NCBI GenBank assembly: GCA_965248605.1
Contig: CBDFJV010000005.1
Coordinates: 36,355 to 100,354, forward strand
Direction of reading: 5' to 3'
DNA length: 64,000 nt
Origin: Dehalococcoidia bacterium
GTDB taxonomy: Bacteria; Chloroflexota; Dehalococcoidia; Lucifugimonadales; CAUZJF01
This document shows, piece after piece, positions 29,302 through 52,981 of this stretch. Position numbers and translations under genes: made by a program. The notes beneath the pieces were generated by a model. That model made no database searches. It was not told the DNA's origin and saw only the letters and a program-made list of their open reading frames with translations. Each line of letters starts with the position of its first letter. Positions within the stretch are counted from its first letter, which is position 1.

Positions 29302-31284
29302 AGCCAGCCGTTCAATGTGCGACAACACCGTGCTGTCCGTGAGGATTCGTTGTTCAGCGATTTCCTCGATGGAGAGGCCTTGTAACAGGAGCCGCTTTGT
29401 CTCCTGGAACGTCGTCCCCGCAACGCCATCACTTCTCCCGCGCCGCTCCGGCGGATGCTGCTCGGGTGCGTCACGTTCGGCGAGGCCATTCTCGTGAGCG
29501 TACTGCTGGATCACCGCGAGGAACGCGTCGCTGAACTGCGCTAGCTTCTCGGTACCTACTCCGTTGACGCGGGCGAAACTTTCCTTACTCTGCGGTAGAA
29601 ACGCCGCCATTTCCCGGAGAGCCCGGTCGCCGAAGATCACGAACCCAGGCACGTCTTTCTCGTCCGCCAGCCTCTTTCTGAGCACCCGGAGACGCTCGAA
29701 GAGCGCGCCGTCGTATTCCAGCTTGTGGATGTCCGGGACCCGCTGCGGCTCGCGTCGGGGCCGCTTCAAAACAAGGCGCTCGCGCCGTTTCAAGAACGTC
29801 TGTCCGGCCTCCGTGACCTGGAGAATCGGGTACTCGGTGCCTACCTTCTCCAGTAGACCGCGCTCGGTGAACAGCTTGATCAGATCTCGGACCTCCTCGC
29901 CCGAGGTGTCACGCATAATCCCGTGTACAGTGAGCTGGTCGTGGCCGAGCTCCACCAGCCTCTTCGACCGTGAGCCTTGAAGGACCAGCGCGACGTGGGC
30001 AGCCCCGAACCTCTCGCCGGTCCGGATGACTGCCGAGAGGACCTTCTGCGCCGCCTCGGTGGCGTCGAACTCCTCTTCCTCGGCTAGACAGACGTCGCAG
30101 CCTCCGCAGTCGTCTCCATCCATCGATTCGCCGAAGTAGTCGAGCAGAAAGGCCCTCCGGCACGTGACGCTCTCGCTCATCTCGATCATCTTCGCTAGCT
30201 TGAGGCTCGCGTTCTTCTTTTCCGCCGGGTCTTCCATCTGGTCGATGAAGAAGTCTTGCTTAATCTTGTCGCCGTACGAGTAGAAGAACACGCAGTCGCT
30301 GGGTAGCCCATCGCGGCCTGCCCGACCCGTCTCCTGGTAGTACCCCTCGATCGACTTGGGCAGATCGTAGTGGACGACCGTGCGGACATCGGGCTTGTCG
30401 ATCCCCATCCCGAAGGCGATCGTGGCCACTATGACAGGCACGTCGTCCCGGATAAACCGCTCCTGGGTCTCTCTCCGGACGTCGTCTTCGAGCCCGGCGT
30501 GGTATGGCATCGCCTTCAGCCCGCTGGCCGAAAGGTCGGCGGCAAGCTCCTCGGTCCCTTTGCGCGAAAAGCAGTAGACGATGGCGGGAGTGCTGCCGTC
30601 CTGCCGTAGCACTTCGACGAGCGCCCGTCGGGCACGCTTCTTGGGCCGCACGAGGTACTTGAGGTTGGGCCGGTCGAAGCTGGCCAGGAATGTCCGCGAG
30701 CCCTCGAGACCAAGATGTTCGACGACGTCGCGCTGCACCCTTTCAGTCGCCGTCGCAGTCAGGGCGATCGTCGGAACGTTGGGAACATCTCCCCTCAGAA
30801 TGTCCAGGTTGCGGTACTCGGGCCGGAAGTCGTGACCCCACTCGGAGATACAGTGGGCTTCGTCGACGGCGATGAGCGCGACTTCGACGCGCTGCAGGAA
30901 GTTGCGGAATCCCGGTACCGTCAGGCGCTCGGGCGCCACGTAGAGGATGTCTAGCCGGCCGGCAAGGCCTTGAACGTGAACGCGCGACACCTCGGCAGCA
31001 GTCATTGTGCTGTTGATGAACTCGGCGCGGACGCCGTTCGCCTTGAGAGCGTCTACCTGGTCCTTCATCAGGGAGATCAGGGGCGACACCACGAGTGCCA
31101 CGCCATCGAGCAGCAGCCCTGGAAGCTGGTAGCACATCGACTTGCCGCTGCCCGTCGGCATCACGACCAGGGCGTCCTTTCCAGCGAGCACGTGGGAGAC
31201 GATCTCTTCCTGCAACGGGAGGAAGGCGTCGTAGCCGAAGCGCGCCTTCAGTTCGGCGAGCGGCTCGCGAACAGTTTCATTCAT
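29110..31284 (-). CDS. recQ: ATP-dependent DNA helicase RecQ
   Basis: FGYDAFLPLQEEIV, PTGSGKS, DEAH (VDEAHCISEWGHDFRPEY), zinc-binding Cys cluster, HRDC, and a C-terminal HTH-like extension. Confidence 0.95.
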   Translation of the reverse strand: MNETVREPLAELKARFGYDAFLPLQEEIVSHVLAGKDALVVMPTGSGKSMCYQLPGLLLDGVALVVSPLISLMKDQVDALKANGVRAEFINSTMTAAEVSRVHVQGLAGRLDILYVAPERLTVPGFRNFLQRVEVALIAVDEAHCISEWGHDFRPEYRNLDILRGDVPNVPTIALTATATERVQRDVVEHLGLEGSRTFLASFDRPNLKYLVRPKKRARRALVEVLRQDGSTPAIVYCFSRKGTEELAADLSASGLKAMPYHAGLEDDVRRETQERFIRDDVPVIVATIAFGMGIDKPDVRTVVHYDLPKSIEGYYQETGRAGRDGLPSDCVFFYSYGDKIKQDFFIDQMEDPAEKKNASLKLAKMIEMSESVTCRRAFLLDYFGESMDGDDCGGCDVCLAEEEEFDATEAAQKVLSAVIRTGERFGAAHVALVLQGSRSKRLVELGHDQLTVHGIMRDTSGEEVRDLIKLFTERGLLEKVGTEYPILQVTEAGQTFLKRRERLVLKRPRREPQRVPDIHKLEYDGALFERLRVLRKRLADEKDVPGFVIFGDRALREMAAFLPQSKESFARVNGVGTEKLAQFSDAFLAVIQQYAHENGLAERDAPEQHPPERRGRSDGVAGTTFQETKRLLLQGLSIEEIAEQRILTDSTVLSHIERLAGTGEKIDVAHLMPQDRFEKIAAAFREAGGEALRPVRDLLGEEYSYEEISLTRIRLGQESAPAL

Positions 31285-34430: not shown

Positions 34431-34512
34431 AAGGGGGGTCGCGCGGACAGCGAGCCGCCTCACGTGGAGGCCACGTATCGCAGACAGGTACTCGAAGCCC
34501 TGGCTCTCAGCC

Positions 34513-35451
34513 CTAGCGGAAAAGCACGAGGACCGTCGAGGCCGTCGCCAGCCAGAGCACGATCGTGACGATAAGAGGGATGTCGGTGATCAGCACCTCT
34601 TCCGGTGCTTCTCCGAGATTCTCTGAGTGGACCAGGAAGAGGTACCTGAACAGTCCGTAGACGACGAACGGTATCGTCAGCATCATTGCGTGGTTCTCTG
34701 GAAGGTTGGGAGCGGTGAAGGTGTAGAGGGTGTAGGCGAGGAGCGTCGACGTGGCGACGAGCGCGATAAATTGGTCCAGCAGCGGGACCGTGTAAACCGC
34801 AAGGGTCTCGCGCTGTCTTTCGGCGAGACCGTGGGACGCGACCAGCTCGCTCCGTCTCTTGGCCAGTGCGATCAGTAGCGCGCCGAGGCCTGTACACGTA
34901 TACAGCCATGGGGAAATGGGCACCTGAAGCACAGCAGCGCCCGCAACGGCCCTCAAGACAAACCCAGCGCTGATCGCAAAGACGTCGAGTAGCACGATCC
35001 GCTTCAAGACGACCGAGTAGACTGCCATCAGCGCCAGGTAGGCGAGCGCCACCCACCCGAACTCCGGCACCAGCAGGAATGAGATGGTGACCCCGGCGAG
35101 GGTTAAAGCCGCGGCGCCGGACCACGCCAATTGCACGGGAAGCTGGCCCGATGCTATGGGCCTTAGTCGCTTGGTCGGATGCGCCCGGTCTGCCTCCAGG
35201 TCGAAGATGTCGTTGACCAGGTATACCGCGGCTGACAGCGCCGAGAACACCAGAAAGGCGAGACCGGTCTGGCCGACCAACGAAAGAGCCTTGTCTGTGT
35301 CTCCTACGCTCCAGGCGTCGTCGATCGTGAAGATGAGGGCAAAGAAAATGATAAGGTTCTTGGTCCACTGTTTCGGCCGGGCGGCCACGACCAGCGACTT
35401 CAGGACGCCGAGAACGGAGGGAGGCAGCGTTTGCTCGCGTGGGGTCTCCAC
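34513..35451 (-). CDS. UbiA-family prenyltransferase (decaprenyl-phosphate phosphoribosyltransferase-like)
   Basis: RPKQWTKNLIIF and NDIFDLEADRAHPTKRLRPIASG. Polytopic membrane protein. Confidence 0.85.
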   Translation of the reverse strand: METPREQTLPPSVLGVLKSLVVAARPKQWTKNLIIFFALIFTIDDAWSVGDTDKALSLVGQTGLAFLVFSALSAAVYLVNDIFDLEADRAHPTKRLRPIASGQLPVQLAWSGAAALTLAGVTISFLLVPEFGWVALAYLALMAVYSVVLKRIVLLDVFAISAGFVLRAVAGAAVLQVPISPWLYTCTGLGALLIALAKRRSELVASHGLAERQRETLAVYTVPLLDQFIALVATSTLLAYTLYTFTAPNLPENHAMMLTIPFVVYGLFRYLFLVHSENLGEAPEEVLITDIPLIVTIVLWLATASTVLVLFR

Positions 35452-35546
35452 GTCCTGGATAATACGCTCGGCCCGTTGAGACCGTCAACGGAGATGAGGT
35501 CCACGTACACGGGCTTGGCGGCGCCGTCGATTCGAACTTCCACTCG

Positions 35547-35575
35547 TTGACATCGGAAGTTGGCTTCATTACGAT
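35547..35575 (+). promoter_or_regulatory. sigma70-like promoter for groES
   Basis: TTGACA (35547-52), 17-nt spacer, TACGAT (35570-75), about 85 nt before the groES ATG. Confidence 0.45.
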
Positions 35576-35659
35576 ACCTTGGCAGTCGGTGCGGGAGGCT
35601 GCCAGCCAGCGCGGCTGCGTCTCTCGCGGCCGCCCACAGCCACAAGGAGGAGTGTCAGC

Positions 35660-35965
35660 ATGGCCACCAAGTCTAAGGTCTCGTTCAAGCCCCTCGGGAA
35701 TCGCATCGTCGTCGAGCCCAACGAAGAGGACGCGCAGGTGACCGCGGGGGGGATATACATCCCGGACACCGCCAAAGAGAAGCCTCAGGAAGGCACGGTA
35801 GTCGCGGCAGGCCCAGGTAAGATGAGCGACGACGGGAAGCGGATACCCATGGAGATCGAAGTCGGAGATGTCGTCGTCTACTCGAAGTACGGGGGCACCG
35901 AGTACAAAGAGGGCGATATCGAGTATATGGTCCTTCGAGACGACGACGTTCTGTTCAAGAAGTAG
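35660..35965 (+). CDS. groES: co-chaperonin GroES
   Basis: AAGGAGG Shine-Dalgarno sequence. KPLGNRIVVEP...TAGGIYIPDTAKEKPQEGTVVAAGPG. Confidence 0.95.
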   Translation: MATKSKVSFKPLGNRIVVEPNEEDAQVTAGGIYIPDTAKEKPQEGTVVAAGPGKMSDDGKRIPMEIEVGDVVVYSKYGGTEYKEGDIEYMVLRDDDVLFKK

Positions 35966-36006
35966 TGCAGCGGCTGGACCGCCGGCCGGACAAACGCTAC
36001 AAGTGG

Positions 36007-36043
36007 AAGCGGCTCTGGAGCGATTCCAGGGCCGCTTTCTTTT
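36007..36043 (+). terminator. rho-independent terminator after groES
   Basis: aagcggc-t-ctgga-gcgat-tccag-g-gccgctt followed by tcttttcc. Confidence 0.55.
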
Positions 36044-36228
36044 CCAGGTCGTACGTGCGCTCCATATAGGGATGTGATAGTGCGCTGAGGCCACATGTTG
36101 TGGCCTGGCGGGGCGTCAGGATTGGTCTCCAATTGGCCCCCTTGGACGCTTGACGGCCCCTTGTGGGGCCGTTGTTATAATGGCGCCCATTCCCAAGTCT
36201 GATCCCCGCTCACGGTGCCAGGAATCTG

Positions 36229-39200
36229 TTGTTTACCCACCTCCACAATCATACCGAGTACAGCTTCCTCCTGGACGGGCTGAGCCGCCTCGAAACCGTA
36301 GTTGGACGTGCAAAAGAGCTGGGCATGGACTCCCTCGCGATCACCGACCACGGGGGTCTATACGGCGTCATCGACTTCTACCGGACCGCCAGGGAAGCCG
36401 GAATCAAGCCGATCATCGGGTGCGAGATGTACGTCGCGCCGAACAGTCGGCACGACCGCAATCCGGGCGACAAAACGTCCTTTCACCTGACCGTGCTCTG
36501 CAAGAACATCGAAGGCTATCGCAACCTCGTCAAGCTGGTCACGGCCGCCCACCTCGAAGGCTTCTACTACAAACCCAGGGTTGACCGCGAGATCCTACAG
36601 CAATATCACGAAGGCCTGATCGTACTTTCGGGATGTCCCAGCGGCGAGGTGCCTTCGCTTATTTCGCAAGGACGGATGGACGAGGCCCGGTCTGCCGCGA
36701 CCTGGTACAAGGAACTCTTCGGCGACTACTACCTCGAGCTCATGCGCCACGACGGAGTCGACGGGCTGCCAGCCATCAACGAAGGTCTTGTCGAGCTTCA
36801 CCGGGAGCTAGGCATCGACGTGGTCGCGACAAACGACAGCCACTACGTGCACCAGGAAGACGCGCCTATCCAGGACGTGTTGATCTGTATCCACACGAAC
36901 ACGAATGTAAACGACGAAAAACGCCTGAAGATGGACGACGACTCCTACTACCTCAAGAGCGCTGACGAGATGGAGTCGCTCTTCGCGGACGTGCCCGAAG
37001 CTATATCCAACAGCCAGGCAATAGCCGACAAGTGCAATCTCGAGCTCGATTTCTCCCAGCTGCACATGCCTGAATACCCGGTGCCGGACGGCCTCACGCC
37101 CGACGACTACCTGCGTCAGCTCTGTGAGGAAGGGTTGCAGAGCCGCTTCGAGAGGGTGACGGAGGTCGAAAGAGGCAGGCTGTCATACGAGCTCGACGTA
37201 ATCCGCCAGACAAAATACGCCAACTACTTCCTAGTGGTTTGGGACATCGCGCGCTTCGTTAGGGAACACGACATCTACTTCGCGGTGCGAGGAAGCGCTG
37301 CCGGAAGCATCGTCCTCTACTGCCTGGGCGTGACCGACGTGAACCCGCTGCAGTACGAGATCGTTTTCGAGCGGTTTCTGAACGTCGAGCGTCGAGAGAT
37401 GCCCGACATCGACATGGACTTCCAGGACGACCGGCGGGAAGAGGTCCTGAACTACGTCGTCGAAAAGTACGGCGGTGACCACGTGGCGCAGATAATCACG
37501 TTCGGGACCCTCGGGGCCCGGGCCTCCATTCGCGACGTCGGACGGGCGCTGGCGATGCCCTACGGCGACGTCGACCAGATTGCTCGAATGATCCCCAATA
37601 GGCTCAACATGACCCTCGAAAAGGCCATGGGTGAGAACCCCGAACTGGAGGAGGCGTACGGCGCCGACGAGGGCACCAAGAAGCTGGTCGACATCGCGCA
37701 AAGGCTCGAAGGAATTACCAGGCACGCCAGCACTCACGCGGCAGGAGTGGTTATCTCGCAGGAGCCCCTCGAGACCTACGTACCCCTCCAAAAGCCGACG
37801 CGAGGCGACGACGACAGCATTTCGATGACCCAGTACGCCATGGAGCCCATCGCCGCCCTCGGGCTGCTCAAGATGGACTTCCTTGGCCTCGTCAATCTCA
37901 CGGTCCTGGCCAAAGCCCGCGATCTGATCGATCGGACGCGAGGTGTTCGCCTCAATCTCAAGGACATCCCCCTCGACGACACCAAGACCTTCGAGCTCCT
38001 CTCAGCGGGACAGACGGTTGGCGTGTTCCAGATGGAGGGGGCGGGCATGACCAACTACATACAGGACCTGAAGCCAACGACGATAAACGACGTAGCGTCG
38101 ATGATCGCCCTCTACCGTCCGGGGCCCATGGAGCACATCGGCACGTTCATCGACGCGAAGCATGGACGGGCGGAGGCCCAGTACGTCCACGAATCGCTGA
38201 AAGGCATTCTCGAGGAGACGTATGGAGTCATCGTCTACCAGGACCAGGTGTTCCTGATCGCCCAGGCATTCGCAGGCTACTCGCTCGGCGAGGCGGACGT
38301 GCTCAGGAAGGCCATGGGCAAGAAGATCCCCGAGATTATGGAAAAGGAGCGCGACAAGTTCCTTAGTGGGGTGATCGCGCAGGGTCACTCTCGGGAGCTG
38401 GCGGAGAAAGTTTTCGCGCTGATCGAGCCGTTCGCCGGCTACGGCTTCCCGAAGGCCCACGCGGTTAGCTACGGCCTCATCTCGTACTGGACTGCTTACC
38501 TGAAGGCGAACTTCCCGGAAGAGTACATGGTGTGTCTCCTCAACGCCTACGTTGAGAACACCGAGAAGCTTGGCGGATCGGTCGCCGAGTGCCGGAGGCT
38601 CGGGATTGAGGTGATGCCGCCCGACGTTAACTACAGCCACGTCGAGTTCTCGGTGGAGCGGCAGAACGATGGCGGGACCGCCGTGCGGGTCGGGCTCGCA
38701 TCGGTCAAGAACGTCGGCGAAGGGGCGGTGACGCCGGTCATCGAGGCGAGAGAGAAAGAGGGGCCGTTCGCGTCGATCGAGCAAATGTGCAGGGTCGCCG
38801 ACCTCCGGGGCCTTAACCGGAAGTCGCTAGAGAGCTTGATCAAGGCCGGGGCTTTCGACCAGTTCGGCGACCGAGGCGCACTGCTAGAGGTCGTGGACAG
38901 GGTGCTGTCCTTGGCCCAGAGCGAGGCTAGCCTCCGCGAGTCCGACCAGACCTCTATGTTCGACCTTTTCGGAGAGTCGGTGCCGACTCCTCTGGCGCAA
39001 ATCGATCTTCCGGCCGGCCAGACATCCAAGAGCGAGAAAAAGGTCTGGGAGACCGAGCTGTTAGGCGTGAATTTCGCCGACAACCCTCTGCTGAATCTCC
39101 CGGCGTCCGATGGCGACACAAAGGCGATCATGTCCCGGAGTGAAGTCAGAGCCGACATGAACGGCGAGAAGATCGAGCTCAGGGGCCAGGTCGCATCGGT

Positions 39201-39870
39201 GAGCCACAGGTACACCAAGGACCAGAAGCCCTACTCGAGCGCCAACATCGCGCTCCTGGACGGCGACATCGACGTATTCGTCTGGCAGAACGTGCTCGAA
39301 AAGACCCAGGGCTTGTGGGAGCCCAGCAAGCTGCTTACGATCGCAGGCCGGGTGAGAGCGAGGGATGACAGGGTCAGTATCTCCTGTCTCAACGCGTCGG
39401 AGTTCAAGGTGAAGGAAGACGGCGAGTCGCCGGACGAGAAGCCCGCTCCAGAGCCGGCTGCGCCACCTGCCGCGAGCCCATTGTCCATCTCTCCAAACGG
39501 CGTCTCACCCCCGGCCCAGGAGCCGCGGGCCGACACTGCGCCTTCTCCACCTCCCGTACAGACTCCGGCAGAAACGTATCCGCGCCAGAGACGACTGCTG
39601 CTCCGTATCCGGGAGACCGACCAGCCCGACGACGACCATCGCTTGATGGACGACCTGAAACAGCTGCTTCTGGGGTACCAGGGTGACGACTCCGTCGGAC
39701 TCGAGATCGCGTCGAACGGGCACCTGGTGACGCTGGACTGGGCTCTGGTGCGGGTAAACATATGCCCGCCGCTACAAGAGGCGCTCGAAGAGGTAATCGG
39801 CCCTTCCGGAAGCATCTCGATCGCGGACGAGCCCTCCAACGGCGCCGTATCCCGGAACGGCGTGGCTTAA
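36229..39870 (+). CDS. dnaE: DNA polymerase III alpha subunit
   Basis: PHP domain FTHLHNHTEYSFLLDG. Polymerase core GLLKMDFLGL. OB fold. Pro/Ala-rich linker before the C-terminal segment. Confidence 0.95.
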   Translation: MFTHLHNHTEYSFLLDGLSRLETVVGRAKELGMDSLAITDHGGLYGVIDFYRTAREAGIKPIIGCEMYVAPNSRHDRNPGDKTSFHLTVLCKNIEGYRNLVKLVTAAHLEGFYYKPRVDREILQQYHEGLIVLSGCPSGEVPSLISQGRMDEARSAATWYKELFGDYYLELMRHDGVDGLPAINEGLVELHRELGIDVVATNDSHYVHQEDAPIQDVLICIHTNTNVNDEKRLKMDDDSYYLKSADEMESLFADVPEAISNSQAIADKCNLELDFSQLHMPEYPVPDGLTPDDYLRQLCEEGLQSRFERVTEVERGRLSYELDVIRQTKYANYFLVVWDIARFVREHDIYFAVRGSAAGSIVLYCLGVTDVNPLQYEIVFERFLNVERREMPDIDMDFQDDRREEVLNYVVEKYGGDHVAQIITFGTLGARASIRDVGRALAMPYGDVDQIARMIPNRLNMTLEKAMGENPELEEAYGADEGTKKLVDIAQRLEGITRHASTHAAGVVISQEPLETYVPLQKPTRGDDDSISMTQYAMEPIAALGLLKMDFLGLVNLTVLAKARDLIDRTRGVRLNLKDIPLDDTKTFELLSAGQTVGVFQMEGAGMTNYIQDLKPTTINDVASMIALYRPGPMEHIGTFIDAKHGRAEAQYVHESLKGILEETYGVIVYQDQVFLIAQAFAGYSLGEADVLRKAMGKKIPEIMEKERDKFLSGVIAQGHSRELAEKVFALIEPFAGYGFPKAHAVSYGLISYWTAYLKANFPEEYMVCLLNAYVENTEKLGGSVAECRRLGIEVMPPDVNYSHVEFSVERQNDGGTAVRVGLASVKNVGEGAVTPVIEAREKEGPFASIEQMCRVADLRGLNRKSLESLIKAGAFDQFGDRGALLEVVDRVLSLAQSEASLRESDQTSMFDLFGESVPTPLAQIDLPAGQTSKSEKKVWETELLGVNFADNPLLNLPASDGDTKAIMSRSEVRADMNGEKIELRGQVASVSHRYTKDQKPYSSANIALLDGDIDVFVWQNVLEKTQGLWEPSKLLTIAGRVRARDDRVSISCLNASEFKVKEDGESPDEKPAPEPAAPPAASPLSISPNGVSPPAQEPRADTAPSPPPVQTPAETYPRQRRLLLRIRETDQPDDDHRLMDDLKQLLLGYQGDDSVGLEIASNGHLVTLDWALVRVNICPPLQEALEEVIGPSGSISIADEPSNGAVSRNGVA

Positions 39871-40430: not shown

Positions 40431-40602
40431 CCTTAAGCCGCATCTTGGTCTATACTTGTTTGAAACCGGTGCGGATGCCCTGGTCTGGTGCTGGTACCAC
40501 CTTCCAGGTAGCCAATTCCTCTTCCTAAGAAGCTCGGCTATTTCAATTCTAGCCGGGCTAGGCATCGTTGTCAATACGCTCGGCAGAAAAGGAGCGGTAA
40601 CG

Positions 40603-41337
40603 ATGGGCGCTCTGTCAGGCGGACAGATTGTTGAGTTGGTTACCAAGGGCGAGTTAGTCATAGACCCATTTGATGAAAAACTTGTTCAACCTGCCACTTA
40701 CGACCTTCGCTTGGGGGATAAGATACTGGCCAGCCCCCTTGGCCCTGTAGAACATGGGGGGCCTGTTCAGCTTAGTCGTGACAGACCTAGCTATGATGTC
40801 ATCACCGGTCAAATGGTCTCTGTGAAATCGGCGGAATACATAGAGTTGCCGCTTACCGTTGCTAGCGGTAGCTTCGGGATACGATCCCACTACGCGAAGC
40901 TTGGCTTTATCGCCTTTGGGGGCGTTCAATTGGACCCCGGATTCCATGGTGTTGTCATAATGAATCTCCAAAACGTGGGTCCCGAACCAATACCACTCAA
41001 GATGAATGACCCCTTTTTTACCGTCCAGTTTGAGCGCCTCGAACAGCCAGCAAGCAAAGGATACGACGGACCGAACCAAGGCCAACGCGATTTCCCCGAT
41101 GACCTTATAAGGTTCATCGAATCGGCGCGAACCACTAGTCTTGCCGAGATTCCGGGGCTCAGACGCGAAATCGCACGCCTTAGCGTGCAGCTTGAAGCAC
41201 TGACTGACAAGCTGCCTGCGCCGGAGAACGACTTTGAGTTGAAAGAAGAGGTCATTGACGCCCTTCACCGCTCTTCTACGAAGCCCCGAGACTCATTGAT
41301 TACTCTTGACGAGATGCGCTCTCGACTAGCTGAGTGA
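40603..41337 (+). CDS. dCTP deaminase/dUTPase-fold protein with ~80-aa C-terminal extension
   Basis: GGAG 8 nt before the ATG. GGQIVELVTKGELVIDPF, QPATYDLRLG, QLDPGFHGVVIMNLQN, YDGPNQGQ, then a helical tail ...LRREIARLSVQLEALTDKL...LITLDEMRSRLAE. Confidence 0.75.
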   Translation: MGALSGGQIVELVTKGELVIDPFDEKLVQPATYDLRLGDKILASPLGPVEHGGPVQLSRDRPSYDVITGQMVSVKSAEYIELPLTVASGSFGIRSHYAKLGFIAFGGVQLDPGFHGVVIMNLQNVGPEPIPLKMNDPFFTVQFERLEQPASKGYDGPNQGQRDFPDDLIRFIESARTTSLAEIPGLRREIARLSVQLEALTDKLPAPENDFELKEEVIDALHRSSTKPRDSLITLDEMRSRLAE

Positions 41338-46122: not shown

Positions 46123-46150
46123 TTGACTGGCGAATAGGCAAGTGTATATT
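46123..46150 (+). promoter_or_regulatory. sigma70-like promoter for cysS
   Basis: TTGACT, 16-nt spacer, TATATT. AGGAGG Shine-Dalgarno sequence before the GTG at 46197. Confidence 0.4.
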
Positions 46151-46196
46151 AGACCGACGGCCATGCTATCTGAGCGCGGGAACGAGGAGGCGAGAA

Positions 46197-48419
46197 GTGC
46201 TTAAGCTGTACGACACGATGTCGAAGCAGGTGTCCGAGCTGGAGCCCCTAGAACAGGGTCAAATCAAGATGTATACCTGCGGCCCTACGGTGTACAGAGA
46301 CGCTCACATCGGCAATCTACGTACCTACCTGATGGCGGACTGGATCAGACGGACCCTTGAGTTCCAGGGGGTCTCGGTCACCCAGGTAAAGAACATCACC
46401 GACGTCGGTCACATGCGGCAGGAGATGCTCGAGCGCGGCGAAGACAAGGTGGTCGCGGCGGCGTTGTCCGAGGGGAAGACCCCCTTCGAGATAGCGGCCA
46501 ACTACACAGAGCGCTTCCTCTCGGACGAAGGCAAGCTGAATATCACTCCCGCGGACCAATTCCCGAAGGCGACGGACCACATCGGCGACATGATCAAGAT
46601 CACCGAAGGCCTTGTGGAAAAGGGGTTGGCGTACGAGGCCGGCGGGAACGTCTACTACGAGATTTCGAAGTTCCCCAACTATGGCCAACTCTCCGGTAAC
46701 ACAGGGGAAGAAGGTCTCAGGGAAGGTGTCCGGGTCGAGGTCGACCCGCTAAAGCGAGACCCTCGTGACTTCACGCTTTGGAAAGCCGCCGAGCCGGGCC
46801 GGGAATTGAAGTGGAACAGTCCCTGGGGAGAAGGTTTCCCAGGGTGGCACGTCGAATGCTCTGCTATGTCGATGAAGTACCTGGGGCAACAGTTCGACCT
46901 TCACACCGGCGGCGTAGATAACGTGTTCCCTCACCACGAAGCCGAGATCGCTCAAAGCGAAGGCTTCACGGGCAGCAAGGTCGTGAACCGTTGGGTCCAT
47001 GGACAGCATCTGCTGGCAGACGGCGTGAAGATGGCCAAGTCCATGGGGAACACGTTCATCCTGGCCGACATCGAAGCTCGAGGTATAGAACCGCTCGCGT
47101 TCCGATACCTTTGTCTCACCGCGCAGCACGCCACGCGCTTGAACTTCACCTTTACCGCGCTGGGAGCCGCGCAGCAGGCGCTGCAGTCCCTGAGAGACAG
47201 GATCTGGGAGTGGGAGCTGCTCTCCGGGTCAGCCGAACCCGACGACGACGTTTGGCTGGAATGGAGGGGCAAATTCCTCGATCACCTGAACGACAACCTG
47301 GACCTGCCCGGAGCGCTCGCATTGACGTGGGAACTGGCCCGATCCGACCTTCCCAGCCAGACGAAGCTGGCTACCCTCCGGGGGTTCGACCGCGTCCTGG
47401 GGCTAGGACTCGACAACGTAGCCGAGAGCTATCAGGTCCCCGACGAAATCCAAGCTACAGTTGCTCGGAGATCGATTCTCAGAGAGCAAGCTCAAGCCGC
47501 TGAGCCTGAGGCCCGGCAACCGTTGTACGACCAGGCCGACGCCGTTCGCCAGGAGCTCTCCGAGGCGGGTTACGTCATCGAAGACACGGCCGCCGGCACG
47601 CTGGTCCGCCCGAGGTCGACTTGGGAGAAAAGGCAGGAGGAGTGGAACCAGGTCTCTTCGTCCGCGGAAGTGGACTCGCTTGTTGACGAACCGGATACAG
47701 TGGACTTCACCATAGGTATCGTCGCAAGTAACTACGTCGACGACGTATCTCGGTGCGTTCAAAGCGCCCTCAGATGGGCCGGAGATAGGCCGATTGAGGT
47801 GATCGTCCTCGATAACGGATCGACGGATGGCACGGGGGAATGGATTGAGGAGGTCGCGTCCAAGGACGAAAGGGTGCGAGCAGCGCACACCGATCACGTG
47901 TTGGGCCAGGGAGCTGCCGCGAATATCGTGCTAAAGCTGAGTCGTGGAGGGATCGTCGCCCTGCTCGATACCAGCGTGGAGGCGGTCGGTGACTTCCTCG
48001 AACCGCTGCAGAGCTTGCTCGCCGACGACACCATAGGTGTCGCAGGACCGTTCGGACTGCGCACGACTGACTTGCACCACTTCCACGATGGAGAAGGAGA
48101 GAGCGGCGATATGGATGCGATGCAGGCGTACTGTTTCGCGTTCAGACGTAGCAGTGTACCGGTCGTCGGACTGATGCGGGAGACCTTCAGGTTCTACCGC
48201 AACCTCGATCTCGACTACAGTTTCCATTTCAAGGATAAGGGCTACCGAATCGTTGCGGACCCTTCGCTGCCATTCACCCGCCACGAGCATCGAGTATGGA
48301 GCGAGCTTGGCGAGGACGAGCGCGAAGACCTCAGCAAAAAGAACTATCGACGCTTCTTGGACAAGTGGGGCGAGCGAAGCGACCTCCTGGTCGCGAACCA
48401 GGCTCCGCGCGCGCAGTAG
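46197..48419 (+). CDS. cysS: cysteine--tRNA ligase fused to a C-terminal GT2 glycosyltransferase domain
   Basis: Residues 1 to ~480 form a complete CysRS (CGPTVYRDAHIGNLRTY, WHVECS, KMAKSMGN, DALR-like LNDNLDLPGAL, C-terminal ADAVRQELSEAGYVIEDT). Residues ~500-740 are GT-A (IGIVASNY...EVIVLDNGSTDGT...ALLDTS). Confidence 0.9.
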   Translation: MLKLYDTMSKQVSELEPLEQGQIKMYTCGPTVYRDAHIGNLRTYLMADWIRRTLEFQGVSVTQVKNITDVGHMRQEMLERGEDKVVAAALSEGKTPFEIAANYTERFLSDEGKLNITPADQFPKATDHIGDMIKITEGLVEKGLAYEAGGNVYYEISKFPNYGQLSGNTGEEGLREGVRVEVDPLKRDPRDFTLWKAAEPGRELKWNSPWGEGFPGWHVECSAMSMKYLGQQFDLHTGGVDNVFPHHEAEIAQSEGFTGSKVVNRWVHGQHLLADGVKMAKSMGNTFILADIEARGIEPLAFRYLCLTAQHATRLNFTFTALGAAQQALQSLRDRIWEWELLSGSAEPDDDVWLEWRGKFLDHLNDNLDLPGALALTWELARSDLPSQTKLATLRGFDRVLGLGLDNVAESYQVPDEIQATVARRSILREQAQAAEPEARQPLYDQADAVRQELSEAGYVIEDTAAGTLVRPRSTWEKRQEEWNQVSSSAEVDSLVDEPDTVDFTIGIVASNYVDDVSRCVQSALRWAGDRPIEVIVLDNGSTDGTGEWIEEVASKDERVRAAHTDHVLGQGAAANIVLKLSRGGIVALLDTSVEAVGDFLEPLQSLLADDTIGVAGPFGLRTTDLHHFHDGEGESGDMDAMQAYCFAFRRSSVPVVGLMRETFRFYRNLDLDYSFHFKDKGYRIVADPSLPFTRHEHRVWSELGEDEREDLSKKNYRRFLDKWGERSDLLVANQAPRAQ

Positions 48420-48730: not shown

Positions 48731-49444
48731 ATGCGAGTCGTTTTCCTGGATGACGTTCCTGGGGTCGCTCTCGGGGGCGAGGTCAAGGAGGTAAAGAACG
48801 GGTTCGCCCGCAACTACCTCATTCCGCAGAAACTCGCCGTCGCTGCAACTCGCGATGCGCTCCAGGGGGTCGCGAAGCTCGGCAATCAAGCCGAAGTCAA
48901 ACGGCTCAAGACGCTGCAAGACATGAAGGCTCTGAGCGAGGTGCTAGACGGGGTTCGTGTCGACGTCGATATGAGGGCCGGCACCAGCGGCCGACTGTAC
49001 GGCTCCGTCACCAACGCAATCGTGGCGGAAAAGCTCGCCGAGTTGACGGACCGGGAGATCGACCGCAGGACCATTGAACTGGCCGAACCTATACGAGAGC
49101 TGGGTGCCTTCGCGCTAAATGTTCGCCTCCACCCCGAAGTCATCGCCACCGTGAACCTTCTCGTCTATCCCTCCGGTTCCGAGCCAGACGAATTCCTAAC
49201 GAGTTGGCTGGAAGAGGCTGCGGCAAAAAAGGAGGCGGAGGTGGCTGAAGCCGAGTCCGAAGAGGCCGCGGAAGATACGGATACCGTCGCAGTCACGGAC
49301 GCAGCCAGTACCGCGGAGGATACTGTGTCAGAGACTGATCACGCCACAGTAGGAACGCCGGCGATCGAGGCGCCCGAGCTGTCGGAAACCGAGCAGCCCG
49401 AGGCCGTCGACGAGGCCTCCGAGGAAGAGCCGGACCAGAAGTAG
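48731..49444 (+). CDS. rplI: 50S ribosomal protein L9 with acidic C-terminal extension
   Basis: MRVVFLDDVPGVALGGEVKEVKNGFARNYLIPQKLA. About 90 extra Glu/Asp/Ala/Thr-rich residues. Confidence 0.9.
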   Translation: MRVVFLDDVPGVALGGEVKEVKNGFARNYLIPQKLAVAATRDALQGVAKLGNQAEVKRLKTLQDMKALSEVLDGVRVDVDMRAGTSGRLYGSVTNAIVAEKLAELTDREIDRRTIELAEPIRELGAFALNVRLHPEVIATVNLLVYPSGSEPDEFLTSWLEEAAAKKEAEVAEAESEEAAEDTDTVAVTDAASTAEDTVSETDHATVGTPAIEAPELSETEQPEAVDEASEEEPDQK

Positions 49445-49572
49445 CCGTCCGGCAGCGCGTCCGGACCATTCAACCGACCGGCCGGTCATAGAGACGCCGT
49501 TTCGGTCTCTGTGATTCACATCGACGAGCCAGCCCCCGATTTCACGTCGGGGTTCATCCAGGGAGTCAGACC

Positions 49573-50952
49573 TTGTACGCCGAGCGGCTCTTACCCCACG
49601 AAACAGAAGCGGAAGAGTCCGTAATCGGCTCGATTCTGATCGACGGCGAGTCTCTGACAAAGGTCTCGTCGTTCCTCAAGTCGGACGACTTCTACAGCGC
49701 CAAAAACCGCTGGTGCTTCGACGCTTTTCTCGCACTGTTCGAGAGAGGCGAGGCCATCAACCAGGTTACGGTAGCGCACGAGCTCTCCGGCCAGGAGAGG
49801 CTCGATGACGTCGGCGGCGTCGCCTACCTGGCGCACCTCGTGCGCTCGGTGCCGACGTCGGTCCATGTCGAGCACTATTCCAAGATTGTCCAACGTACAT
49901 CAACGATGCGGCGTCTCATTGCCGCGGCGGGCGACATCGCTGCCATCGGCTACGACGCGGGCCCAGACGTAGACTCCGCGCTAGGCCAGGCAGAAGACCT
50001 GCTCTACAAGGTACGGGCAGGCGGGGGCACGCGTGACTTCCGCCACATCCGCGAGGTCCTTGATGCTTACATGGAAGACACGGCGACAATCGATCTCGAC
50101 CCGGGTCGCTATCTGGCTCCCATCCCGACCGGCTTCAACAGACTCGACGAGCTACTCGGGAACGGGCTACAGAGGTCCGATATGGTGGTCGTGGCCGCCC
50201 GGCCGAGCCTGGGGAAAAGCACACTAGCGTTTAACATCGCACAGCACGCGGCGCAGCAGGGCGCCCGCGTCGGCATCTTCAGCCTCGAGATGAGCGCCGA
50301 GCAGATCGCTATCCGCATGCTGGCGGGCGAAGCGAACGTCGACAGCCACCGGCTGCGCATCGGGTTCGTCAGCGAGGCCGAAGAGAGCAGGGTCCATGAC
50401 GCTATCGGCGTCCTCTCCGAGCTGCCCATCTACATCGACGAGACTCCCATTCAAGGAGTAGTCGAGATGCGCGGAAAGGCCCGTCGGCTCCAGACGGAAC
50501 GTGGCCTCGATCTAGTAATCGTCGACTACCTCCAGCTTATGACGTCTGGAAACACGAGGAACGACAACCGGGTCCAGGAGATGGGAGAGTTCTCCCGCTC
50601 GCTAAAGGGCCTGGCGCGCGACCTCGACATCCCGGTACTGGCCTGCTCCCAGCTGAGCCGTGCACCGGAGCAGCGCCCCTCCCACAGGCCGATACTGTCT
50701 GACCTTCGGGAGAGCGGCAGTATCGAGCAGGACGCCGACGTCGTCGCGTTCATCTACCGCGAGGACATGTACACGACCGAAGAGCAGTGGGAGAAGCGGT
50801 CTCCCAGCGAGCCGTACCCAAAGAACATAGCCGAGCTCATCGTCTCGAAGCACCGGAACGGGCCCACCGGTACTATCCCGCTGTACTTCCGCAACGACGT
50901 GGTGCGATTCGAGAGCCTTGACCAGTCGGTGGGGTCGAGGGAGTTTGCCTAG
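49573..50952 (+). CDS. dnaB: replicative DNA helicase DnaB
   Basis: PHETEAEESVIGSIL, Walker A ARPSLGKST, IVDYLQLM, SQLSR, IEQDADVV. Confidence 0.95.
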   Translation: MYAERLLPHETEAEESVIGSILIDGESLTKVSSFLKSDDFYSAKNRWCFDAFLALFERGEAINQVTVAHELSGQERLDDVGGVAYLAHLVRSVPTSVHVEHYSKIVQRTSTMRRLIAAAGDIAAIGYDAGPDVDSALGQAEDLLYKVRAGGGTRDFRHIREVLDAYMEDTATIDLDPGRYLAPIPTGFNRLDELLGNGLQRSDMVVVAARPSLGKSTLAFNIAQHAAQQGARVGIFSLEMSAEQIAIRMLAGEANVDSHRLRIGFVSEAEESRVHDAIGVLSELPIYIDETPIQGVVEMRGKARRLQTERGLDLVIVDYLQLMTSGNTRNDNRVQEMGEFSRSLKGLARDLDIPVLACSQLSRAPEQRPSHRPILSDLRESGSIEQDADVVAFIYREDMYTTEEQWEKRSPSEPYPKNIAELIVSKHRNGPTGTIPLYFRNDVVRFESLDQSVGSREFA

Positions 50953-51636
50953 GTGGCATTTACGGGCTTTCCGTCGAAGGTGCGATACACACCCGTTCCA
51001 AGCTCGCTATTTAGCGAGCTTCTGGAGCAGATAGATGACATTGCGGAGCTCAAATGCACCTTGCGTCTCATGTGGCTCTTGCACGAAAAGAGGAGCTACC
51101 CTCGCTTCCTGACCCGTCGTGAGCTAGTTACGGATAGGGTCCTCGCTAGGGTGCTGGTGAGGGATGGCAGCGATCCGCAGGCCGCTATCGACAGAGCCTT
51201 GATGTCGGCCGTACGCCGGGGGACCTTCCTATCGGGGCTCGTGAAGGGCACCGGGGCGTCGGAGCGCGTCTACGCTCTGAACACCGAGCCCGATCGCAGA
51301 GCGATGGCCAGGGTGGTGACGAAGACGTCGCTGGGCGGAGAAGAAGTCCCTCCGAGTGCCCAGGAAGAGCCGAGCGAGCGTCCAAACATCTTCGGCCTTT
51401 ACGAGGACAACATCGGGCTACTGAGCCCGATGATCGCCGAAGAGCTGAAACACACCGAAGCGGCCTATCCTCACGGTTGGATAGAGGACGCCTTTCGGGA
51501 GGCCGTCAGCAACAACAAACGTAGCCTGAGGTATATCACCGCGATACTGGAACGATGGGAGCGAGATGGAAGGGGCGATGGAAGACCTCTCCGATATCCT
51601 AAAAAGAATAGCTTCGAAGAACGGGTCGGGAGATAG
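50953..51636 (+). CDS. DnaD-domain replication protein
   Basis: GTG immediately after the dnaB stop. C-terminal DnaD/DnaB_2-like segment NIFGLYEDNIGLLSPMIAEELK...SLRYITAILERWERDG. Confidence 0.7.
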   Translation: MAFTGFPSKVRYTPVPSSLFSELLEQIDDIAELKCTLRLMWLLHEKRSYPRFLTRRELVTDRVLARVLVRDGSDPQAAIDRALMSAVRRGTFLSGLVKGTGASERVYALNTEPDRRAMARVVTKTSLGGEEVPPSAQEEPSERPNIFGLYEDNIGLLSPMIAEELKHTEAAYPHGWIEDAFREAVSNNKRSLRYITAILERWERDGRGDGRPLRYPKKNSFEERVGR

Positions 51637-52981
51637 CAGGCCGCGAGAGCGTCCCCAGGATATTGACGAGCCCGAAGTCTGCGGCGTCTGCAGCGGCCGC
51701 GGCTGGCTGACCACAGACGTCCCAGCCGGTGACCCCAACTTCGGGCGCTTCGTTTTGTGCGAGTGCCAGGAGCCGCGGGTCGACGAGGAGCGGTATTCAA
51801 GGCTCCTTCGGTACAGTAACCTGGGCGCCCTGAGCCGCTTCACGTTCGAGACCCTACGGCGACCGCCGTCTGAAGGACCGGACGATGAGAGCCGGTACGG
51901 CGAGGCCTACCAGGCCGCTGAATCGTACGCGGAAAGCCCAAGCGGCTGGCTCGTCCTCACCGGACCTTACGACCCAATGAAGGTGCGGCTGGCCGCCGCT
52001 ATCGGCAATCGATGCCTCGAGCGCGGCTACGTCGTCTTGTTTGTTCACGTGTCGGACCTGCTCGACCACCTCCGGGCAACCTTCAGCCCAACGAGCGAGA
52101 TGGCTTACAGCGAGCTCTTCGATCAGGTCAGGAACACCCCGCTCCTGATACTCGACGACCTGGGCAGTCACAGCACGACGCCCTGGGCCGAGGAGAAGCT
52201 CCGACAGATCGTCAACCAGCGGTACAATGCCGAGCTCCCGACCGTCATCACCACGACCGGCGATCTGAACGAGGTCGACCCTTACATTCTCAGCCGTATT
52301 CAATCGCCGGACCTCAGCCGCATCTTCGAGGTAGGGACCGAGCCTAAGGGCCCCACGCACAGGTTAGGCGGGATCGATCCCGACATGCTGAAGCGGATGA
52401 CGTTCACGACCTTCGACGTTCGCGGGAACGGCCCTAGCGATGGTCAGAGACGCAGCATCGAGGCTGCCCGTACGGCTGCCAAGAACTTCGCGGCCGACCC
52501 CGACGGCTGGTTGACGCTCTTCGGCGAGACCGGCGTCGGCAAGACGCACCTCGCGGTCGCCATCGCCGCTGAGCAGATCGAGAAGGGGAAGTCGATCTTC
52601 TTCGCCAGGGTTCCCGAGCTTCTCGACTACCTCAGGTACACTTTCAGCCCGGACAGTCCGGTCACCTACGACCGGCTATTCGAGGACGTCAAGACCGCGC
52701 CCCTGCTCATACTGGACGATCTCGGTCAGGAGCACAGCAGCCCCTGGGCGAGCGAGAAGCTCTATCAGATCGTCGTCCACCGTCACGATGCGCGGCTGCC
52801 GACAGTGGTCACCAGCATGGTCGACTTCACGAAGGAGCACGGCCCGATGGGCTCGCGGGTCCAGGACACGTCCGTTGCGCTTGTCTGCAGAATCGACGCC
52901 CCCGACTACCGAAACAAGGCGGCCAGGCGCAGTGGGAGCCCGCGTCAGTCCGGCGCTACCCGGGCGCGACCCTCGCGCTGA
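51566..52981 (+). CDS. DnaC/DnaI-like helicase loader with N-terminal Cys4 knuckle and two tandem AAA+ modules
   Basis: CGVCSGRGW...CECQ. Module 1: WLVLTGPYDPMKVRLAAAI...LLILDDLG. Module 2: WLTLFGETGVGKTHLAVAI...LLILDDLG. Confidence 0.8.
   Translation: MEGAMEDLSDILKRIASKNGSGDSRPRERPQDIDEPEVCGVCSGRGWLTTDVPAGDPNFGRFVLCECQEPRVDEERYSRLLRYSNLGALSRFTFETLRRPPSEGPDDESRYGEAYQAAESYAESPSGWLVLTGPYDPMKVRLAAAIGNRCLERGYVVLFVHVSDLLDHLRATFSPTSEMAYSELFDQVRNTPLLILDDLGSHSTTPWAEEKLRQIVNQRYNAELPTVITTTGDLNEVDPYILSRIQSPDLSRIFEVGTEPKGPTHRLGGIDPDMLKRMTFTTFDVRGNGPSDGQRRSIEAARTAAKNFAADPDGWLTLFGETGVGKTHLAVAIAAEQIEKGKSIFFARVPELLDYLRYTFSPDSPVTYDRLFEDVKTAPLLILDDLGQEHSSPWASEKLYQIVVHRHDARLPTVVTSMVDFTKEHGPMGSRVQDTSVALVCRIDAPDYRNKAARRSGSPRQSGATRARPSR

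Follow-up and report, generated by a model that had tools for sequence, protein, structure and literature searches.

A cysteinyl-tRNA synthetase fused to a predicted GT-A glycosyltransferase domain in Dehalococcoidia and other Chloroflexota

The fusion gene and its synthetase half

The window analysed here, a 64,000-nucleotide stretch of DNA from a Dehalococcoidia bacterium, carries on its forward strand (46197..48419) an open reading frame of 740 codons in a single unbroken frame, the start of which matches residue 1 of E. coli cysteinyl-tRNA synthetase (CysRS) and of 80 aligned orthologues. A Shine-Dalgarno sequence lies just ahead of the start codon, and a promoter consensus scan, which returned two sites against 0.7 expected, provides weak evidence for a sigma-70-like site further upstream. 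Neither Rfam elements nor tRNAs were found within the window. The features of the gene and of its synthetase half are as follows.

46123..46150, + strand: match to a sigma-70-like promoter, TTGACT-16-TATATT, ahead of the gene (consensus scan)
46184..46190, + strand: Shine-Dalgarno sequence GAGGAGG, 6 nt upstream of the GTG start (sequence reading)
46197..48419, + strand: whole CysRS-GT2 fusion ORF, 740 aa plus stop, GTG start (ORF list, Pfam, NCBIfam)
46197..47186, + strand: catalytic domain (Rossmann) of class-I CysRS, aa 1-330 (Pfam PF01406, E 9e-91)
46278-46280, + strand: C28, zinc ligand (1li5 alignment)
46305-46316, + strand: HIGN, aa 37-40, HIGH signature
46857-46859, + strand: C221, zinc ligand (1li5 alignment)
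46932-46934, + strand: H246, zinc ligand (1li5 alignment)
46944-46946, + strand: E250, zinc ligand (1li5 alignment)
47028-47042, + strand: KMAKS, aa 278-282, KMSKS signature
47187..47606, + strand: helical and anticodon-binding part of the CysRS, aa 331-470, ending in ...AGYVIEDTAAGTLV (TIGR00435, 1li5, Foldseek)

The first-pass annotation had described this frame as a complete CysRS followed by a short linker and a GT-A/GT2 glycosyltransferase (GT) domain, an architecture fully borne out by Pfam, NCBIfam and the fold model: a complete class-I CysRS (aa 1-470) is followed by a connector (aa 471-500) and by the GT-A/GT2 domain (aa 501-740). All of the motifs it quoted were located in the ORF upon checking of their coordinates, namely HIGN, GWHVECS (containing C221), KMAKS, the stretch ...RQELSEAGYVIEDT, IGIVASNY, EVIVLDNGSTDGT and ALLDTS. 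The DALR-like helix that it listed stands in part, in that the region is structurally equivalent to the helical/anticodon-binding part of CysRS whereas Pfam DALR_2 went undetected at E<=0.1.

The synthetase half matched Pfam tRNA-synt_1e (PF01406) over aa 15-326 with an E-value of 9e-91, and scored 395.7 bits against a cut-off of 340 with the NCBIfam cysS model TIGR00435, aa 2-470 falling on model positions 1-463 of 466. Solved CysRS were matched end to end (8qhp, 315 bits; 3sp1, 308 bits; 1li5, 255 bits), and the 1li5 alignment reaches residue 456 of 461, thus taking in the anticodon-binding domain. In this alignment, the E. coli zinc ligands C28, C209, H234 and E238 correspond to C28, C221, H246 and E250 of the fusion, which, along with H37, G39, N40, K278, M279, K281 and S282, were kept in 81/81 sequences. 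Within the anticodon-binding region, R425, D448, R451 and D463 are invariant, and PF23493 (CysS_C) was found in orthologues. The full-length model of the fusion, whose pTM is only 0.71, aligned with the CysRS-tRNACys complex 1u0b_B at a TMt of 0.83 in Foldseek. Residues 1-470 possess all the sequence and fold features required for cysteine activation, namely the zinc site for thiol selection, HIGH and KMSKS, and, in the anticodon-binding domain, for tRNACys binding.

The fusion is collinear with bacterial class-I CysRS over its residues 1-468. Like E. coli CysS (1li5/1u0b) and Borrelia burgdorferi CysS (3sp1), it has the catalytic domain, the zinc site, the HIGH and KMSKS signatures and the anticodon-binding domain, and it has the 11-residue 'GH....GEDK' insertion (fusion aa 73-84) in common with the Borrelia-type enzyme. 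Unlike solved or characterised CysRS, which stop where the connector begins, the fusion has about 270 extra C-terminal residues with a GT-A domain. The catalytic domain of MshC (Cys:GlcN-Ins ligase; 3c8z/8hfm), to our knowledge the only link of CysRS-type chemistry to a sugar scaffold, is homologous to that of the fusion; MshC differs in having no tRNA anticodon-binding end, in being a separate paralogue and in having no fused GT. The fusion scored 209 bits with the MshC equivalog model TIGR03447, below its cut-off of 485, and in a search with the fusion MshC PDB chains reached 157 bits versus 255-315 for true CysRS. The synthetase half, which keeps the anticodon-binding domain, thus reads as a canonical tRNA ligase rather than as an MshC-like protein. 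No second CysRS was found in the 64-kb window or in 84 flanking loci.

The connector and the glycosyltransferase half

Downstream of the synthetase half, the following features were delineated.

47607..47696, + strand: conserved connector, aa 471-500, RPRSTWEKRQEEWNQVSSSAEVDSLVDEPD (orthologue alignment, structure model)
47697..48416, + strand: GT-A/GT2 glycosyltransferase domain, aa 501-740 (Pfam PF00535, AlphaFold2, Foldseek)
47811-47834, + strand: DNGSTDGT of the GT domain, conserved 81/81
47967-47981, + strand: D591-T-S593-V-E595 at the DXD position of the GT domain, conserved 81/81
48114-48116, + strand: D640 of the GT domain, conserved 81/81
48201-48209, + strand: N669-L-D671 of the GT domain, conserved 81/81
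48282-48293, + strand: H696-E-H698-R of the GT domain, conserved 81/81

The Ser-rich connector shows a mean column identity of 0.65, with S487 kept in at least 98% of 81 sequences. In the C-terminal model, its residues from position 11 onward have a pLDDT >90 and pack against the GT domain. Beyond it, Pfam Glycos_transf_2 (PF00535) was matched over aa 506-630 (E 4e-17; 63.1 bits versus a cut-off of 23.3). The AlphaFold2 model of the GT domain (pLDDT 94.3, pTM 0.90) aligned in Foldseek with GT27/GT2 structures, including ppGalNAc-T, WrtF, K4CP and 6p61, at a probability of 1.0 and a TMq of up to 0.71. The domain is thus predicted to adopt a GT-A fold, and the initial caveat that the C-terminal part might lack GT2 structure fell away. 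No GT4 family match was found in the fusion protein by Pfam at E<=0.1, which sets it apart from MshA and BshA, both GT-B/GT4 enzymes.

With the GT2/GT27 enzymes K4CP chondroitin polymerase (2z86), GalT1 (5hea), a Leptospira GT (6p61), WrtF (9omm) and ppGalNAc-T2 (2ffu), the GT half has in common the GT-A fold, an N-terminal 'DxGS.D' nucleotide-binding strand, an Asp at the first DXD position and a putative C-terminal His motif. It is only 15-21% identical to these structures, has D-x-S in place of DXD or DXH and, unlike them, has no lectin domain, membrane segment or partner domains; in the acceptor half it has invariant motifs of its own (HFH, DAMQAY, FRFYRNLD and HEHR). Its likeness to GT27 is one of fold only, at 15-20% identity, with D-x-S instead of D-x-H and no ricin-type lectin domain because the protein stops after the GT-A core. 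A search of PDB sequences with the GT profile revealed a generic likeness confined to the N-terminal half of GT2 enzymes, and a 60-residue probe around the DXD position returned nothing meaningful. A suspected resemblance to the 'D-x-H-x-E ... LEPL' stretch of GT27, supported by neither search, was dropped. No transmembrane segment was found in the GT domain, and a scan of viral contigs found no relatives of it.

Conservation of the GT domain is extensive: 43 positions are kept in at least 98% of 81 species, and 34 remain invariant when 109 fusions of the four lineages are compared; most of the motif residues listed above are invariant in this wider set, as are R651, R665 and R668 in the acceptor half. 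The DXD motif is not canonical, D591-T-S593 lying opposite D-C-D of K4CP and D-S-D of GalT1, with Ser at the position of the second Asp in 81/81 sequences. Metal binding is therefore possibly unusual or absent, although the invariant E595, two residues past S593, may compensate for the lost Asp. D671 (of NLD) and H696/H698 are invariant as well, their roles as catalytic base (an xED-type Asp) and C-terminal His being assigned by motif order alone rather than by superposition. With D591-x-S593-x-E595, D640, D671 and H696-x-H698 all invariant, the active site does not look degenerate.

Integrity and spread of the fusion

The first-pass annotation had also pointed to the risk of a stop or frameshift missed at the junction, of two separate genes, or of a singleton with a degenerate site. 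What was found is an intact fused frame: each of the 80 best GTDB species loci has a single open frame, at least 728 codons long, in which the HIGH, KMSKS and GT motifs are present, and a 740-aa product 99% identical to that of the window ORF (P0268) occurs on seven contigs, the four places shown belonging to four different ENA assemblies. The best 120 matches in each of two database searches were all full-length fusions.

A query with the C-terminal 270 residues returned only proteins of at most 472 aa, some adjoining a separate CysRS ORF, as might be seen if adjacent cysS and GT2 genes had been merged by sequencing or assembly error. These short versions, however, stem from long-read metagenome assemblies at 3-11x coverage and are frameshifts: in four contigs with an apparent split, the CysRS ORFs upstream are overlapping or out of frame and the junction reads through, at locus L087 the junction lies in a single frame, and break positions vary between close relatives. 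Given the intact frames described above and a connector conserved at the protein level, the notion of a merged-gene artefact is refuted. A free-standing 'anticodon-domain + GT2' family was rejected upon inspection of the same four contigs. No genuine fission of the fusion was found across four lineages, and none of the top 120 GT-domain relatives examined turned out to be free-standing.

The four lineages in question are Dehalococcoidia/SAR202, in which at least 80 GTDB species carry the fusion, Chloroflexia, Ktedonobacteraceae and Candidatus Dormibacteria; the combination is conserved throughout the phylum Chloroflexota. Fusion-related MAG records name the genera Kouleothrix and Oscillochloris. 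Purifying selection acts on both halves of the protein, the median dN/dS being 0.28 for the GT domain, 0.18 for the CysRS catalytic domain and 0.44 for the anticodon-binding domain, values that are only rough, dS being close to saturation in the majority of pairs. Divergence of the CysRS and GT domains is correlated (r=0.885). In a neighbour-joining tree of the CysRS part, fusion-length proteins grouped in one region together with four shorter sequences, which we take to be fragments.

SAR202 ranks among the most abundant bacteria in the dark ocean, and new biology, from editing to lipid aminoacylation and signalling, has repeatedly come to light in domains appended to aminoacyl-tRNA synthetases (aaRS). 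In this group and in further lineages, a GT that is apparently active remains joined to a seemingly housekeeping CysRS; orthologues carry the NCBI label 'cysteine--tRNA ligase', which by itself hides the second domain. Consistent with the first-pass annotation, which knew of no characterised CysRS-GT2 fusion, a full-text literature search found no paper on one, and the fusion is absent from two Chloroflexi/CysRS papers (PMC5424206, PMC5389517).

Candidate acceptors of the appended domain

The fusion gene sits among core genes, namely those for MetRS, a polyprenyl synthase, TerC, L9, DnaB, a DnaD-like protein, Pol III alpha and RecQ. Clustering of about 1250 crude ORFs from 81 loci showed that the neighbours vary by subclade (pyruvate kinase, Na/Ca exchanger, Amidohydro_3, LplA/B, MeaB, polyprenyl synthase, MetRS) and found no consistently linked glycan, thiol or tRNA-modification gene. 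An Amidohydro_3 gene is present in 27 loci, mostly three genes downstream, and is not universal. In none of 84 loci was a tRNACys gene found within 8 kb of the fusion gene, nor was any tRNA-modification gene found linked to it.

Leaving the identity of the acceptor aside, we consider it probable that the protein is an ordinary housekeeping CysRS with a catalytically competent GT appended to it. A soluble, cytoplasmic GT-A domain of the GT2 type would then be joined to the natural C-terminus of the synthetase, directly after the anticodon-binding domain, through the conserved and structured 30-residue connector. Residues 501-740 are predicted to bind a nucleotide-sugar and a divalent metal via D539, D591(-x-S593-x-E595) and H696/H698, and would transfer the sugar with D671 and/or D640 as the base, an assignment made from motif position rather than from superposition. 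The placement of a connector-joined GT after the anticodon domain, in a fusion of four lineages showing no genuine fission, argues that the GT may act on something that the synthetase presents. We regard it as possible, at somewhat less than even chance, that the GT glycosylates the substrate bound by the synthetase, whether a nucleoside of tRNACys at or close to its anticodon arm or the cysteinyl group of Cys-tRNACys, or else builds a Cys-sugar thiol together with the CysRS active site.

The leading candidate for the acceptor, put forward tentatively, would be enzyme-bound tRNACys (or Cys-tRNACys), although proteins and small molecules are nearly as likely. tRNACys is not known to carry a glycosylated nucleoside and has no queuosine. 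As to precedents, GluQRS/YadB, a GluRS paralogue, modifies queuosine in tRNAAsp, indicating that aaRS-type modules can serve anticodon-loop modification, and the eukaryotic queuosine glycosyltransferases QTGAL/QTMAN illustrate that GT enzymes can glycosylate tRNA nucleosides; both serve here as analogies only, and we are aware of no bacterial tRNA glycosyltransferase of the QTGAL/QTMAN kind. LysX of Mycobacterium tuberculosis, a LysRS fused to an MprF-type lysyl-phosphatidylglycerol synthase, resembles the CysRS-GT2 protein in being an aaRS covalently fused to a second enzyme. The partner in LysX consumes aminoacyl-tRNA and LysX is a second, non-housekeeping copy; the CysRS-GT2 fusion, by contrast, pairs a predicted NDP-sugar transferase with what appears to be the housekeeping synthetase. 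Were the GT to act on the CysRS's own substrate, the protein would be the first aaRS with a built-in glycosyltransferase activity of that kind, and Chloroflexota, marine SAR202 included, would be suspected of having a tRNA modification or low-molecular-weight thiol new to science; an acceptor that is tRNACys or a Cys-glycoside would define a new class of aaRS-coupled chemistry.

It is rather unlikely, in our estimation, that the GT instead transfers sugar to a protein, peptide or metabolite of the cytoplasm that has nothing to do with cysteine or tRNA, the fusion merely securing co-expression or stability, in which case the finding would be a curiosity of domain architecture. The first-pass annotation had for its part offered an unrelated moonlighting role of the GT2 domain as its alternative. 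Polypeptide GalNAc-transferases gave the best structural coverage of the GT model (TMq 0.69-0.71 versus 0.55-0.64 for other GT2 structures), but the Foldseek E-values of GT27 and GT2 matches are practically tied. With a median pI of 5.2, the GT domain is acidic; RNA binding is not favoured by this, no general RNA-binding character being apparent, and the neighbourhood offers no functional link whatever. On the other hand, an unlinked fusion should have split, or have free-standing close homologues, somewhere in the four lineages, whereas the apparent splits are frameshift artefacts and the relatives examined proved no free-standing GT; nor is the conserved and structured connector a loose tether.

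Less likely still is a coupling of cysteine activation to a sugar scaffold, in which the GT would make a glycoside, the cysteine would come from the CysRS active site or from Cys-tRNACys, and the product would be a Cys-glycoconjugate such as a thiol resembling mycothiol or bacillithiol. This proposal of the first-pass annotation follows Rosetta-stone logic, MshC being a CysRS paralogue that ligates Cys to GlcN-Ins and a detectable homologue of the fusion; an anionic acceptor, malate or inositol phosphate for example, would fit the invariant R651, R665 and R668; and a literature search on Chloroflexi thiols gave nothing, while we know of no major thiol reported for SAR202. It nonetheless found no support in our analysis. 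The synthetase half is predicted to be a full tRNA ligase and passes the cysS rather than the MshC equivalog model, the GT is of the GT-A type as opposed to the GT-B/GT4 type of MshA and BshA, and 80 loci show no conserved neighbouring gene for an LmbE-type deacetylase, an acetyltransferase or another step of a thiol pathway. Judging from 1u0b, moreover, the GT would be attached beside the anticodon-binding part, a long way from where aminoacylation takes place in the E. coli complex.

That the GT-A fold is non-catalytic and tunes the CysRS by sensing nucleotide-sugars, by mediating oligomerisation or by adding affinity for tRNA appears improbable. Non-catalytic appended domains are frequent on aaRS, and the Ser in place of the second DXD Asp in every member would fit such a role. 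Set against this, D539, D591, D671, H696/H698 and the GxxG loops, which are catalytic positions of GT-A enzymes, stay invariant, and the number of positions invariant over the four lineages exceeds the usual need of a binding module.

Integrity and spread of the fused reading frame

The first-pass annotation had described a single 740-aa ORF carrying a full cysteinyl-tRNA synthetase (CysRS) and a GT2 domain, a reading on which the ORF listing, Pfam and TIGR00435 agreed; every motif it had quoted was recovered upon re-translation at the exact coordinates.

Features of the fusion gene
46197-48419, + strand: fusion ORF (one ORF, start GTG, 740 aa)
6 nt upstream of the fusion ORF: Shine-Dalgarno sequence GAGGAGG
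46123-46150: sigma-70-like match upstream of the fusion ORF

Pfam placed tRNA-synt_1e at aa 15-326 (E 9e-91) and Glycos_transf_2 at aa 506-630 (E 4e-17; 63.1 bits against a cut-off of 23.3), and the NCBIfam cysS equivalog TIGR00435 aligned over aa 2-470 with 395.7 bits (cut-off 340).

No stop or frameshift had been missed at the junction. Seven contigs, one of 4.65 Mb, encode a 740-aa product (library protein P0268) 99% identical to that of the window, and the four places shown for it, from four different ENA assemblies, have a common gene order (MetRS, polyprenyl synthase, TerC, fusion, L9, DnaB, DnaD-like). A GTDB scan with one genome per species returned relatives in at least 296 species; the best 80, all from Dehalococcoidia, SAR202 or Chloroflexota MAGs and many on complete chromosomes, matched the query from residue 1 to about 735, and all 80 loci held a single frame that runs for 728 codons or more without a stop and contains HIGH, KMSKS and the GT motifs. 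Far from being a singleton, the intact fusion is thus carried by at least 80 species. When 5.8 billion proteins were searched with the full fusion, the best 120 matches were all 704-781 aa long with both Pfam domains; a search with the C-terminal 270 aa was misleading, returning only proteins of 472 aa or less.

At four loci in long-read metagenome assemblies, the fusion was called as a CysRS piece and an overlapping or adjacent 'GT2' piece of 265-446 aa.

Split-called fusion loci
L001, 5106-7308
L002, 4890-7341
L087, 3593-5798
L088, 3778-5975

Natural fission into separate CysRS and GT2 genes was considered and rejected, the upstream CysRS ORF being overlapping or out of frame on the four contigs. 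The split versions are frameshift errors, since the junction of L087 reads through in one frame, break points vary between close relatives, coverage of these contigs is 3-11x, and other genes are broken too on at least L001. Through such copies, spurious free-standing entries named 'GT2' or 'cysteinyl-tRNA synthetase', in reality fragments, enter protein databases.

Divergent representatives (45-50% identity) included proteins from a Roseiflexaceae bacterium (818 aa), a Candidatus Dormibacteria bacterium (722 aa) and a Chloroflexota bacterium. In the 818-aa form, two short inserts follow window residues 412 and 557, and a tail of ~49 aa extends the C-terminus; the best 120 matches of a search seeded with this form were all full-length fusions of 788-866 aa, with Oscillochloris, Kouleothrix and Ktedonobacteraceae among the named sources.

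Longer version of the fusion
~800 aa, library proteins P0126 and P0432-P0550: Roseiflexaceae, Oscillochloris, Kouleothrix, Ktedonobacteraceae; Candidatus Dormibacteria at 722 aa

A crude NJ tree built on the CysRS part placed fusion-length proteins in one region, apart from other free-standing CysRS; four shorter sequences (474-533 aa), probably fragments or frameshifted copies, fell there too. Divergence of the CysRS half correlated with that of the GT half (r=0.885). Most simply, a single old fusion would have been passed down through much of Chloroflexota and its sister group; transfer between lineages may also have occurred. Two other CysRS proteins carried N-terminal additions, a PALP (cysteine-synthase-like) domain in P0231 (768 aa) and an extra DALR_2-containing piece in P0140 (858 aa), each ahead of a full CysRS.

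Both parts of the fusion are ordinary members of known superfamilies. Public databases hold it under the name of its first domain only, the best full-length matches being labelled 'cysteine--tRNA ligase [SAR202 cluster bacterium]' by NCBI and the divergent ones likewise 'cysteine--tRNA ligase'. The first-pass annotation had been aware of no characterised CysRS-GT2 fusion, and no description of one was found in the full-text literature, including papers on Chloroflexi and CysRS. The fusion is thus a widespread aaRS architecture, uncharacterised in the literature found and conserved in a large, ecologically important phylum; should cultured relatives carry the fusion, it may be open to direct testing.

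The synthetase half

The CysRS half is collinear with solved CysRS (8qhp, 315 bits; Borrelia 3sp1, 308 bits; E. coli 1li5, 255 bits, residues 1-468 of the fusion against 1-456), whereas MshC structures scored far lower (157 bits), and the 209 bits obtained with the MshC equivalog fell short of its cut-off of 485. The E. coli zinc ligands C28/C209/H234/E238 correspond to C28/C221/H246/E250, and these ligands, HIGN and KM(A/S)KS are kept in 81/81 fusion sequences. A full-length AlphaFold model (pLDDT 82.5, pTM 0.71) matched the CysRS-tRNACys complex 1u0b_B with a TMt of 0.83. The DALR-like helix noted earlier had no Pfam DALR_2 match, but the region is a structurally normal helical/anticodon-binding part of CysRS. 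Given these canonical features, the core-gene setting, and the finding of no second CysRS in the window or 84 flanking loci, we infer that this half is the housekeeping CysRS.

Insertion in the synthetase half
46413-46448 (aa 73-84): 11 residues after NITDVGH, invariant across the fusion family

This insertion, modelled at pLDDT <50, is common to Borrelia-type CysRS (3sp1), whereas E. coli-type enzymes are without it. The window protein also has a 10-residue insert, AAEPEARQPL, in its anticodon-binding domain (47496-47525, aa 434-443), which most relatives are without and which is longer in P0002. One lineage (L002, 5900-6250) carries an acidic, D/E/S/A-rich low-complexity insert of roughly 80 aa between the catalytic and anticodon-binding parts, and the frameshift of that contig lies inside it.

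The glycosyltransferase half

The GT-A fold of the C-terminal domain was borne out by structure prediction. Modelled alone with 50 homologues (pLDDT 94.3, pTM 0.90), it showed the classical GT-A order of strands and helices, and Foldseek matched it to many GT-A enzymes in the PDB with probability 1.0. Polypeptide GalNAc-transferases (GT27) gave the best coverage (TMq 0.69-0.71), followed by K4CP, WrtF, GalT1 and a Leptospira GT2; with identities of 15-21% and E-values nearly tied, the comparison of the predicted structure settles GT-A as the fold without pointing to a substrate. PDB sequences searched with a profile showed generic GT2 similarity only, in the nucleotide-binding half. In that alignment D591 and S593 stand opposite the two Asp residues of DXD, in this order; the motif in the fusion therefore reads D-x-S-x-E. 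By its sequence and fold features the protein belongs to CysRS and, apart from the canonical DXD, to GT2.

Conserved in 81/81 sequences were D539, N540, G541, D591, S593, E595, D640, Q643, N669, L670, D671, H696 and H698, and 34 GT positions were invariant among 109 fusions from four lineages. Judged from this residue conservation, the active site is not degenerate, and its predicted metal site differs from the DXD of textbooks. Median dN/dS values, rough because of high dS, were 0.28 for the GT, 0.18 for the catalytic domain and 0.44 for the anticodon-binding domain. No hydrophobic segment was found in the GT domain, and a scan of viral contigs found no relatives of it. The 30-residue connector is conserved (S487 kept in at least 98% of 81 sequences) and was modelled at pLDDT >90, packed against the GT domain.

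Genomic setting and candidate acceptors

The fusion gene lies amid core replication and translation genes.

Neighbouring genes in the window
29110-31284, - strand: RecQ, upstream
36229-39870: Pol III alpha, upstream
40456-41337: dCTP-deaminase-like gene, upstream
48731-52981, + strand: replication-gene run directly downstream (L9, DnaB helicase, DnaD-like (DnaB_2), IstB/DnaC-like AAA+)

Between the genes for an Fe-S/CCG-domain protein and DNA polymerase III alpha, a 544-aa ORF (34460-36094, - strand) matched no Pfam family at E<=1e-5. Neighbours vary among subclades (pyruvate kinase, Na/Ca exchanger, Amidohydro_3, LplA/B, MeaB, polyprenyl synthase, MetRS), are housekeeping or unrelated, and none is universal. 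The window gave no Rfam elements or tRNAs, and a tRNACys gene was not found close to the fusion in any of 84 loci.

One polypeptide thus unites a complete CysRS with a conserved GT-A domain, and both halves are under selection across at least 80 species in four lineages. Such a protein would charge tRNACys, and its C-terminal domain would transfer sugar from a nucleotide-sugar. We favour an acceptor that would be presented by the synthetase itself, because the structured connector ties the GT directly to the anticodon-binding domain and the fusion never visibly came apart. The leading candidate, a tentative one, is tRNACys or Cys-tRNACys; against it, the GT domain is acidic (median pI 5.2), tRNA-modification genes linked to the fusion were not found, and we know of no glycosylated nucleoside in tRNACys. 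An unrelated protein or metabolite as acceptor is only slightly less probable. The coupling of cysteine activation to a glycosyl scaffold or thiol, as first proposed, is unlikely, the CysRS being canonical rather than MshC-like, the GT being GT-A rather than GT4, and no deacetylase being conserved nearby. The sole neighbour that could conceivably be one is an Amidohydro_3-family amidohydrolase, found in 27/80 loci (e.g. L007, 11769-13313) on the downstream side of the fusion, mostly three genes away on the same strand (20 loci); it is neither universal nor present in the window neighbourhood. That the GT domain is a non-catalytic sensor or affinity module is very improbable.
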